A stretch of 64,000 nucleotides of DNA from Escherichia coli. Lineage in GTDB: Bacteria; Pseudomonadota; Gammaproteobacteria; Enterobacterales; Enterobacteriaceae. Where the stretch lies: assembly GCF_044647545.1 (NCBI RefSeq), contig NZ_CP172818.1; one strand, written 5' to 3'. Positions 51,304-53,990 of this stretch are shown piece after piece. Position numbers and translations under genes: made by a program. The first letter of the stretch is position 1. Each line of letters opens with the position of its first letter. The notes beneath the pieces were generated by a model that did no database searches, was not told the origin of the DNA, and saw only the letters and a list, made by a program, of their open reading frames with translations.

Positions 51304-51674
51304 TAATTTGTCCTTTTCAGTCAGTGCAAAAGTCGAGTAAAAGGCATAACCTATCACTGTCATAGGTAAGAGCTTAGATCAGGTGATTGCCCTTTGTTTA
51401 TGAGGGTGTTGTAATCCATGTCGTTGTTGCATTTGTAAGGGCAACACCTCAGCCTGCAGGCAGGCGCTGAAGATACCAAAGGGTAGTTCAGATTACACGG
51501 TCACCTGGAAAGGGGGCCATTTTACTTTTTATCGCCGCTGGCGGTGCAAAGTTCACAAAGTTGTCTTACGAAGGTTGTAAGGTAAAACTTATCGATTTGA
51601 TAATGGAAACGCATTAGCCGAATCGGCAAAAATTGGTTACCTTACATCTCATCGAAAACACGGAGGAAGTATAG

Positions 51675-52238
51675 ATGTCCTTGATTAACACCAAAATTAA
51701 ACCTTTTAAAAACCAGGCATTCAAAAACGGCGAATTCATCGAAATCACCGAAAAAGATACCGAAGGCCGCTGGAGCGTCTTCTTCTTCTACCCGGCTGAC
51801 TTTACTTTCGTATGCCCGACCGAACTGGGTGACGTTGCTGACCATTACGAAGAACTGCAGAAACTGGGCGTAGACGTATACGCAGTATCTACCGATACTC
51901 ACTTCACCCACAAAGCATGGCACAGCAGCTCTGAAACCATCGCTAAAATCAAATATGCGATGATCGGCGACCCGACTGGCGCCCTGACCCGTAACTTCGA
52001 CAACATGCGTGAAGATGAAGGTCTGGCTGACCGTGCGACCTTCGTTGTTGACCCGCAGGGTATCATCCAGGCAATCGAAGTTACCGCTGAAGGCATTGGC
52101 CGTGACGCGTCTGACCTGCTGCGTAAAATCAAAGCAGCACAGTACGTAGCTTCTCACCCAGGTGAAGTTTGCCCGGCTAAATGGAAAGAAGGTGAAGCAA
52201 CTCTGGCTCCGTCTCTGGACCTGGTTGGTAAAATCTAA
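51675..52238 (+). CDS. ahpC: Alkyl hydroperoxide reductase, peroxiredoxin subunit C
   Basis: 187-aa [31 protein letters not shown]… with peroxidatic Cys context FTFVCPTEL. Confidence 0.95.
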
Positions 52239-52255
52239 TCGCAATCGCGTAATTA

Positions 52256-52283
52256 ATCGGGTGCTGCGGCACCCGATTTTCTT
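52256..52283 (+). terminator. Hairpin with T-tract between ahpC and ahpF (partial terminator / attenuator candidate)
   Basis: Perfect 9-bp stem ATCGGGTGC / GCACCCGAT with 4-nt loop followed by TTTCTT, 18 bp after the ahpC stop; a second imperfect inverted repeat (CATGATGCAAGC…GCTTGCATGATG) precedes the ahpF ribosome-binding site. Confidence 0.45.
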
Positions 52284-52363
52284 CCCCGCACCATGATGCA
52301 AGCTGCATCCAGGTAGCCGCAGAGGCCGCTTGCATGATGATGTTTAAAGCCCAGGAGATAAAC

Positions 52364-53929
52364 ATGCTCGACACAAATATGAAAACTCAACTCAAGGCTT
52401 ACCTTGAGAAATTGACCAAGCCTGTTGAGTTAATTGCCACGCTGGATGACAGCGCTAAATCGGCAGAAATCAAGGAACTGTTGGCTGAAATCGCAGAACT
52501 GTCAGACAAAGTCACCTTTAAAGAAGATAACAGCTTGCCGGTGCGTAAGCCGTCTTTCCTGATCACTAACCCAGGTTCCAACCAGGGGCCACGTTTTGCA
52601 GGATCCCCGCTGGGCCACGAGTTCACCTCGCTGGTACTGGCGTTGCTGTGGACCGGTGGTCATCCGTCGAAAGAAGCGCAGTCTCTGCTGGAGCAGATTC
52701 GCCATATTGACGGTGATTTTGAATTCGAAACCTATTACTCGCTCTCTTGCCACAACTGCCCGGACGTGGTGCAGGCGCTGAACCTGATGAGCGTACTGAA
52801 CCCGCGCATCAAGCACACTGCAATTGACGGCGGCACCTTCCAGAACGAAATCACCGATCGCAACGTGATGGGCGTTCCGGCAGTGTTCGTAAACGGGAAA
52901 GAGTTTGGTCAGGGCCGCATGACGTTGACTGAAATCGTTGCCAAAATTGATACTGGTGCGGAAAAACGTGCGGCAGAAGAGCTGAACAAGCGTGATGCTT
53001 ATGACGTATTAATCGTTGGTTCCGGCCCGGCGGGTGCAGCGGCAGCAATTTACTCCGCACGTAAAGGCATCCGTACCGGTCTGATGGGCGAACGTTTTGG
53101 TGGTCAGATCCTCGATACCGTTGATATCGAAAACTACATTTCTGTACCGAAGACCGAAGGCCAGAAACTGGCAGGTGCGCTGAAAGTTCATGTTAATGAA
53201 TACGACGTTGATGTGATCGACAGTCAGAGCGCGAGCAAACTGATCCCGGCAGCGGTTGAAGGCGGCCTGCATAAGATTGAAACAGCTTCTGGCGCGGTAC
53301 TGAAAGCACGCAGCATTATCGTGGCGACCGGTGCAAAATGGCGCAACATGAACGTTCCGGGCGAAGATCAGTATCGCACCAAAGGCGTGACCTACTGCCC
53401 GCACTGCGACGGCCCGCTGTTTAAAGGCAAACGCGTAGCGGTTATCGGCGGCGGTAACTCCGGCGTGGAAGCGGCAATTGACCTGGCGGGTATCGTTGAG
53501 CACGTAACGCTGCTGGAATTTGCGCCAGAAATGAAAGCCGACCAGGTTCTGCAGGACAAACTGCGCAGCCTGAAAAACGTCGACATTATTCTGAATGCGC
53601 AAACCACGGAAGTGAAAGGCGACGGTAGCAAAGTCGTAGGTCTGGAATATCGCGATCGTGTCAGCGGCGATATTCACAACATCGAACTGGCCGGTATTTT
53701 CGTCCAGATTGGTCTGCTGCCGAACACCAACTGGCTCGAAGGCGCAGTCGAACGTAACCGCATGGGCGAGATTATCATTGATGCGAAATGCGAAACCAAC
53801 GTCAAAGGCGTGTTCGCAGCGGGTGACTGTACGACGGTTCCGTACAAGCAGATCATCATCGCTACTGGCGAAGGTGCCAAAGCCTCTCTGAGTGCTTTTG
53901 ACTACCTGATTCGCACCAAAACTGCATAA
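52364..53929 (+). CDS. ahpF: Alkyl hydroperoxide reductase, flavoprotein subunit F
   Basis: Start at [14 protein letters not shown] (521 aa) preceded by AGGAG; redox motifs CHNC and CPHC and FAD/NAD-binding glycine-rich segments visible. Confidence 0.95.
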
Positions 53930-53959
53930 GAAGAAGTAAGATTCACCTGCAATTGCTTA

Positions 53960-53990
53960 GCCGCCGGGGTCAAACCTGGCGGCTTTTTTA
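53960..53990 (+). terminator. Rho-independent terminator downstream of ahpF
   Basis: GC-rich stem GCCGCCGGGG…CCTGGCGGC followed by TTTTTT, about 30 bp after the ahpF stop. Confidence 0.65.

Follow-up and report, generated by a model that had tools for sequence, protein, structure and literature searches.

AhpC and AhpF are among the most abundant proteins of Escherichia coli and occur in unequal stoichiometry. The system closest to the one described here is the same intergenic region in E. coli K-12, where Gordon, Cameron and Pfleger (2017, mBio, PMC5371410) placed an RNase III site at NC_000913.3:639695 ('intergenic ahpC-ahpF') using RNA-seq of an rnc deletion mutant, in vitro cleavage by the purified enzyme and 5' RACE. 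In that study, the half-life of the ahpC mRNA was about 14 min in the wild type versus about 6 min in the rnc deletion mutant, the stability of the ahpF mRNA was unaffected by RNase III cleavage, and the cleavage was proposed to leave a protective hairpin 3' of ahpC. According to a citation in PMC4222554, ahpF had been listed as a confirmed RNase III target before 2017. An earlier paper treating ahpF as an RNase III target reported that in rnc14 the ahpF mRNA was 7.7-fold up and the ahpC mRNA 3.3-fold up. The published directions therefore conflict, with the ahpC mRNA being less stable in the rnc deletion mutant (PMC5371410) and yet 3.3-fold more abundant in rnc14. A 2022 paper (PMC9032294) placed ahpC among the positively regulated RNase III targets, the mechanism not being worked out.

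The window, that is, the whole 64,000-nt stretch of E. coli DNA analyzed here, contains the gene neighbourhood dsbG (minus strand), ahpC, ahpF and uspG (minus strand). Over this locus it is identical to E. coli chromosomes at 99% or more, and its AhpC matches the annotated E. coli AhpC with 100% identity in the aligned part. The following features of the operon are referred to throughout.

51675-52238, plus strand: ahpC coding sequence, 187 aa, first gene of the operon (ORF list; comparison with annotated E. coli AhpC)
52239-52363, plus strand: ahpC-ahpF spacer, 125 nt, short variant (from the end of the ahpC stop codon at 52238 to the ahpF ATG at 52364)
52255-52278, plus strand: hairpin 1, perfect 10-bp GC-rich stem AAUCGGGUGC/GCACCCGAUU with a UGCG loop (folding, conservation, RNAalifold)
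52277-52283, plus strand: U-rich tail UUUUCUU, the first two U of which also close the stem (sequence)
52288-52343, plus strand: hairpin 2, an RNase III substrate in K-12, including an optional GCA/UGU basal extension (folding, conservation, K-12 cleavage)
52306, plus strand: counterpart of the K-12 RNase III site 639695 (coordinates mapped via the K-12 record L085)
52340-52365, plus strand: hairpin 3, weak and AU-rich, AUGUUUA/UAAACAU (52340-46 with 52359-65), with the Shine-Dalgarno sequence in the loop and the AU of the start codon in the stem
52353-52357, plus strand: ahpF Shine-Dalgarno sequence AGGAG, 6 nt 5' of the ATG (sequence)
52364-53929, plus strand: ahpF coding sequence (start as annotated in E. 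coli records; tblastn)

The original prediction of two hairpins in the ahpC-ahpF spacer was exact in its coordinates, 52239-52363 being the whole spacer. From the core stem of hairpin 1 (52258) to the ahpF start the window is exactly the same as K-12, and within hairpin 1 the two differ only at two bases, 52255-52256, where the 5' side of the stem begins. In K-12 the ahpF start is 58 nt downstream of site 639695, whose counterpart at 52306 falls on the upper 5' side of hairpin 2. The proposal that hairpin 2 marks a processing site is thus borne out by published data: hairpin 2 is the RNase III cutting site already described for K-12 and, judging from the identical sequence, it should be cut in the window strain as well.

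In the ORF list, ahpF starts at 52334, 10 codons early, only because three consecutive in-frame ATGs (52334-52342) sit in the 3' arm of hairpin 2. As part of this arm, the ATGATGA(T/C)G triplet is invariant across genera. What follows it is MMMF and a stop codon in many species and an out-of-frame overlap in others, the reading being in frame only in Escherichia. Since frame and stop vary between genera, a conserved upstream ORF or an N-terminal extension of AhpF starting at 52334-52342 was rejected. The consensus promoter scan found no promoter in the spacer, and a promoter-like site within ahpC (52102-52129) was rejected as not above shuffled expectation. The Rfam search of the locus yielded no spacer match at the gathering score; the sole spacer match, a 29-nt partial hit to rncO (19.4 bits versus a gathering score of 43, E = 0.34), was discarded as chance level. 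Elsewhere in the locus, the dsbG-ahpC intergenic region (51437-51530, plus strand) has an Rfam match to the enterobacterial sRNA STnc70 (44.1 bits versus a gathering score of 40, E = 6e-7). Among the ends tabulated in the supplement of Adams et al. is an 'orphan' Term-seq 3' end at K-12 638796 (plus strand), 149 nt 5' of ahpC, which would correspond to about 51526 in the window; a small transcript probably ends just 5' of the ahpC promoter region. On the other side of the operon, a strong terminator is found 3' of ahpF at 53959-53984 (plus strand; 10 pairs, 8 of them GC, then TTTTTTATT), with its T-run reaching to about 53992. In a Salmonella iRIL-seq paper the ahpF 3' UTR is named as a recently characterised Hfq-associated sRNA.

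Complete E. coli genomes have spacers of three classes, about 128, 170 and 244 nt, with K-12 belonging to the 244-nt class. All length differences fall after the ahpC stop codon and before hairpin 1; from the core stem of hairpin 1 (52258) to the ahpF start the classes are identical in sequence, and both hairpins are kept in all three. Between the ahpC stop codon and hairpin 1 the window is without ~119 nt of K-12, which comprise one more hairpin, imperfectly paired, and a palindromic repeat that is dispersed in E. coli (median, 8 places per genome). Given that the length variation is upstream and that hairpin 2 is single-copy, the hairpins are the constant parts of a variable spacer and hairpin 2 is not a repeat element. 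The K-12 type spacer (L085, 128-212; also L003, L007, L008, L013 and L018) holds a GC-rich palindromic element, …CACCCCGGTCACTTACTTGTGTAAGCTCCCGGGGATTC…, and a related element occupies the corresponding position in Citrobacter werkmanii, Enterobacter sp. Bisph1, Superficieibacter and a MAG. Its occurrence in other genera may mean that the long spacer is old and the short form in the window a deletion, or that the place is an insertion hot spot. Directly after the ahpC stop codon (52239-52254) the window reads TCGCAATCGCG… versus GTTCCGCAATCGCG in the closest complete genomes (O157:H7 type), a 3-nt indel. For a 326-nt query there was no exact match among the matches listed from complete genomes, the best identity listed being 99.1%. 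In one record, E. coli DH5alpha NZ_CP045741.1 (L004, 550-580), hairpin 1 is missing its 3' half, the whole of hairpin 2 is absent together with the Shine-Dalgarno sequence, and ahpF has lost its first codons, the annotated ahpF being shorter with a divergent start; this gap could be a lesion of the stock or an assembly error.

Hairpin 1 had been described as a perfect 9-bp stem followed by TTTCTT, starting 18 bases after ahpC, and this is what the spacer contains: ATCGGGTGC (52256-52264) pairs perfectly with GCACCCGAT (52269-52277), and the A52255-T52278 pair lengthens the stem to 10 bp. Folded alone, hairpin 1 has an energy of -18.3 kcal/mol (z = -5.5), and none of 200 shuffles was as stable. 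Its stem is of the terminator type, being GC-rich, with at least 5 pairs and a short loop. The tail reads UUUUCUU when the stem is counted as 8 bp. With the full 10-bp stem, T occupies four of the eight following bases, making the U-tract short and interrupted, in keeping with partial, not complete, termination. Hairpin 1 was not called in the consensus terminator scan, whose definition of the stem end counts the A-U pairs in the stem and leaves too few T after it. In the accessible texts and supplements no RNA 3'-end record at hairpin 1 was found, and the 3' ends listed in the supplement tables of Adams et al., which cover only some categories and may be incomplete, include one 5' of ahpC and none 5' of ahpF; the word 'terminator' for hairpin 1 is therefore something that we infer. 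Read-through past hairpin 1 must occur, since RNase III acts on RNA downstream of it. Several candidate modes of control at hairpin 1 were considered and rejected. Antitermination by pairing between hairpins 1 and 2 (I2) was rejected because the competing arm lies 3' of the terminator, and a weak alternative pairing upstream (I3) because it is missing from the other E. coli spacer classes. Given the 16 nt from the ahpC stop codon to hairpin 1 and the usual ribosome footprint, a ribosome terminating on ahpC would be too far away to block folding of the hairpin, and such interference was likewise rejected.

The conservation of the spacer was surveyed across Enterobacterales by an AhpC scan with one genome per species, from which the spacers were extracted; the alignment set consists of 71 sequences, including 58 distinct metagenome spacers. 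A GC-rich hairpin with a T-rich tail is found 3' of ahpC, at the same position, in every Enterobacterales spacer examined, its usual core being CGGGUGC/GCACCCG. Two-sided (compensatory) changes affect five of the ten pairs: two pairs each show a CG-UA swap in 25 sequences, and a GC-AU swap occurs in 5. Paired cells amount to 89.6%, versus 28-54% with the partners slid, and the covariation score of 0.242, versus 0.140 in shuffles, was reached by none of 500 shuffles. RNAalifold independently predicts the same stem. At the position of the tail, relatives have TTTTATT, TTTCATT or TTTTTTT; overall, the orthologous tails contain 3-8 T, and most have 4-8 T directly after the stem, the tail being very poor in some relatives, such as Leclercia (GTTATCCCC). 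This pattern of conservation indicates that selection maintains hairpin 1 as an RNA structure at the 3' end of ahpC. Its simplest interpretation is a leaky intrinsic terminator which also serves as the 3' protective hairpin of the ahpC mRNA. The suggested role as a partial terminator is accordingly well placed, given the U-tailed stem-loop kept across Enterobacterales, the compensatory changes and the read-through, and would account for an excess of ahpC over ahpF. In Pantoea sp. Mb-10 (L023, 2091-2120) hairpin 1 and its tail, AAUCGGGUGCUGCGGCACCCGAUUUUCUU, are the same as in the window, with AhpC only 89% identical and no hairpin 2; at the sequence level this identity is unusually strong conservation for a terminator stem. 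The idea that taxa with hairpin 2 have weaker U-tracts was rejected as not robust, the tail of Pantoea sp. Mb-10 being exactly that of the window. Outside Enterobacterales, other Proteobacteria, among them Pseudomonas, Comamonadaceae and Marinobacter, also commonly have a GC-rich hairpin between ahpC and ahpF, in most cases with a T-tract.

Hairpin 2 has a narrower distribution. Its core arms, CATGATGCAAGC (52292-52303) and GCTTGCATGATG (52328-52339), are complementary at 11 of 12 positions with one G.G mismatch; the arms are also given as CAUGAUGCAAGC (52292-52303) and GCUUGCAUGAUG (52328-52339), and imperfect apical pairs follow. There are 17 pairs over 48 nt, or 20 over 56 nt if the GCA/UGU extension is included, interrupted by 1x1 mismatches. 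Hairpin 2 thus has about two mostly paired helical turns, as an RNase III substrate does. At -23 kcal/mol (z = -2.5; 5 of 200 shuffles as stable), it appears only modestly unusual by predicted thermodynamics alone, and it is taken as real because of its conservation and the published cleavage data. Hairpin 2 is present, as a single copy, in 5421 of 5426 complete E. coli genomes. Among the taxa surveyed, it is confined to the group of Escherichia, Citrobacter, Enterobacter, Leclercia and Superficieibacter. Pantoea, Erwinia, Providencia, Brenneria, Arsenophonus and Mangrovibacter have no hairpin 2, and their hairpin 1 lies ~20 nt before the ahpF start. The module of ~65 nt shifts the hairpin 1 stem from about 20-30 to 84-91 nt before the ahpF start, and across the genera bearing it the ATG lies 84-91 nt past the base of the hairpin 1 stem, or 87-95 nt when counted from its GC core. 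From this distribution, hairpin 2 is judged to be a later insertion limited to core Enterobacteriaceae, and hairpin 1 to be ancient. In the 71 sequences, the paired cells of hairpin 2 amount to 94.4%, versus 24-54% when slid, a figure that comes mostly from invariant sequence. Covariation is scant, with two-sided changes in one or two pairs and uncompensated changes of the 5' arm in 8 and 13 sequences; the metagenome search pattern prescribed the 3' arm of 58 of the 71 sequences, which hides any variation in that arm and biases the count. The arms, the G.G mismatch and the AUGAUGAYGUUU tail are near-invariant, and the apical part drifts freely. With only 2-4 U after its stem, hairpin 2 was rejected as a second terminator.

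Hairpin 2 had also been thought to end immediately before the ahpF Shine-Dalgarno sequence and to occlude or modulate the ribosome-binding region. The former is an overstatement, since a gap of 13 nt separates the end of hairpin 2 (52339) from the Shine-Dalgarno sequence (52353-52357), with no contact between them. The latter was not upheld: in partition-function folding the predicted probability of an unpaired Shine-Dalgarno sequence was 0.73 with the spacer intact and 0.81 with hairpin 2 removed, and RNAs beginning at the two possible cleaved 5' ends gave 0.81 and 0.59; the range of 0.59-0.81 applies to constructs that start at or after the ahpC stop codon. Because of this distance and of the similar accessibility with or without hairpin 2, action of hairpin 2 by hiding the ribosome-binding site is not supported by these models. 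Neither the Shine-Dalgarno sequence nor the start codon is paired in a stable structure, and only hairpin 3 touches the AUG. Hairpin 3, which was not part of the original prediction, is specific to E. coli and E. albertii, its pairing not being kept in other genera, and is probably without function.

An alternative for hairpin 1 is that it is a mere barrier to 3' exonucleases, with RNase III or RNase E generating all ahpC 3' ends from a full-length ahpCF transcript. The short, interrupted U-tract and the negative terminator scan agree with this, as do the very poor tails of relatives such as Leclercia, and the published model (PMC5371410) requires only a protective hairpin 3' of ahpC. However, most orthologous hairpins directly precede 4-8 T, including those in taxa that have no hairpin 2 and are therefore without that downstream processing hairpin, and conservation of a T-rich tail is expected for termination and needless for blocking an exonuclease. 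We regard the barrier as unlikely to be the whole function of hairpin 1 and prefer leaky termination. As for hairpin 2, it could instead be a translational operator, with RNase III cleavage or melting activating translation of ahpF as in the case of adhE. Lying 13 nt from the Shine-Dalgarno sequence, it is within reach of the 30S standby site, and the weak extra stem 52340-46/52359-65 takes in the start codon. Against this, the Shine-Dalgarno sequence is predicted to be mostly unpaired in the presence of hairpin 2, whether full or cut, as in its absence, the weak stem at the start codon is not kept outside Escherichia, and in taxa that have no hairpin 2 a Shine-Dalgarno sequence of the same type follows hairpin 1 by about 20 nt, which makes an operator highly improbable.

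Even less credence, next to none, is given to the view that hairpin 2 derives from a dispersed extragenic palindrome (REP, BIME or box-type), whether as a copy or as a remnant, and has no role specific to the locus. The idea draws on the dispersed repeat that the K-12 spacer bears just upstream, at a median of 8 places per genome, but hairpin 2 itself has a median of one place per genome (5421 genomes, blastn E <= 10), and the spacers bearing it hold a fixed distance from hairpin 1 to the ATG across genera. Finally, hairpin 2 might be more than generic double-stranded RNA, for instance a protein or sRNA site, or a cleavage switch that retunes the AhpC:AhpF ratio under stress. Its arms, G.G mismatch and AUGAUGAYGUUU tail stay near-invariant while the apical part drifts, and the changes in the lower stem are uncompensated, suggesting constraint on sequence and not only on pairing. 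In addition, YmdB modulates RNase III, and both ahpC and ahpF are published as responding to YmdB overexpression. Conversely, there is no known partner and no Rfam family match, and the invariance of the 3' arm is in part an artefact of the search pattern. The conservation could also reflect the known sequence preferences of RNase III itself. We consider such an additional function distinctly doubtful; still, the near-invariance of hairpin 2 is stronger than pairing requires, leaving a modest chance of an extra, undescribed role. By the same reckoning there is a small chance that this ~65-nt insert of core Enterobacteriaceae acts in oxidative or osmotic stress as a regulated switch (e.g., through YmdB) or as a docking site for a factor.

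Altogether, it is likely that the spacer is a two-step device which uncouples the ahpC and ahpF mRNAs within one operon, with hairpin 1 acting as the leaky terminator and hairpin 2 as the RNase III substrate. RNA polymerase coming from the ahpC promoter would reach hairpin 1 and UUUUCUU, where a fraction would terminate, giving a monocistronic ahpC mRNA that ends in a stable hairpin. The read-through RNA would carry hairpin 2 and be cut by RNase III at or near 52306, as shown for the identical K-12 sequence. Following the model of Gordon et al., which was put forward as a proposal and is adopted here, the upstream piece would be trimmed by 3' exonucleases to hairpin 1, which would shield the ahpC mRNA, so that both routes would converge on one stable ahpC message. 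The downstream piece would be the ahpF mRNA, present at a lower level; its 5' end would be a product of processing, its leader short and its Shine-Dalgarno sequence accessible. The expected outcome is an ahpC message both more abundant and longer-lived than that of ahpF. An excess of ahpC fits the need for the decameric AhpC peroxidase above the dimeric AhpF reductase, the stoichiometry quoted in the literature for the assembly being [AhpC]10[AhpF]2. Codon bias, with optimal-codon fractions of 0.88 in ahpC, 0.69 in ahpF and 0.51 in the neighbouring genes, agrees with expression of ahpC well above that of ahpF.

The feature is already known and ordinary, and it leaves current understanding unchanged. 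The spacer offers a compact, textbook-style case in which leaky termination and endonucleolytic processing would yield unequal products from one operon. What the present analysis adds to the published mapping of RNase III cleavage is comparative, namely, an ancient, covarying hairpin 1 and a later hairpin 2, both surviving the length variants of E. coli. Compared with the K-12 ahpC-ahpF site (PMC5371410), the window has the same sequence from 52258 to the ahpF start, with 639695 within hairpin 2, and differs in its short spacer, which is without ~119 nt; the cleavage data come from K-12. The dispersed repeats differ from hairpin 2 in having many copies per genome, the K-12 insert at a median of 8 and hairpin 2 at a median of 1. 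Leaky terminators within operons, as described for setting subunit ratios in ABC-transporter operons (PMC9045158), resemble hairpin 1 in placing a GC-rich stem-loop and a U-rich tail between an abundant first gene and a scarcer next one, and hairpin 1 is conserved and covarying. Here, by contrast, the U-tract is broken up, and termination would be followed by a second step that relies on a nuclease. The RNase III signals in the early mRNA of phage T7 (PMC9032294) are similar in that cleavage between cistrons stabilises the upstream message; in T7, however, the cut hairpin stays as the 3' end, whereas here the shield would likely be the separate upstream hairpin 1. In the adhE leader, described as one from which RNase III removes a structure occluding the ribosome-binding site, the cleaved structure also lies 5' of the start codon. 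Unlike in adhE, the ahpF Shine-Dalgarno sequence is outside the cleaved structure, and its predicted accessibility is unchanged by cleavage.
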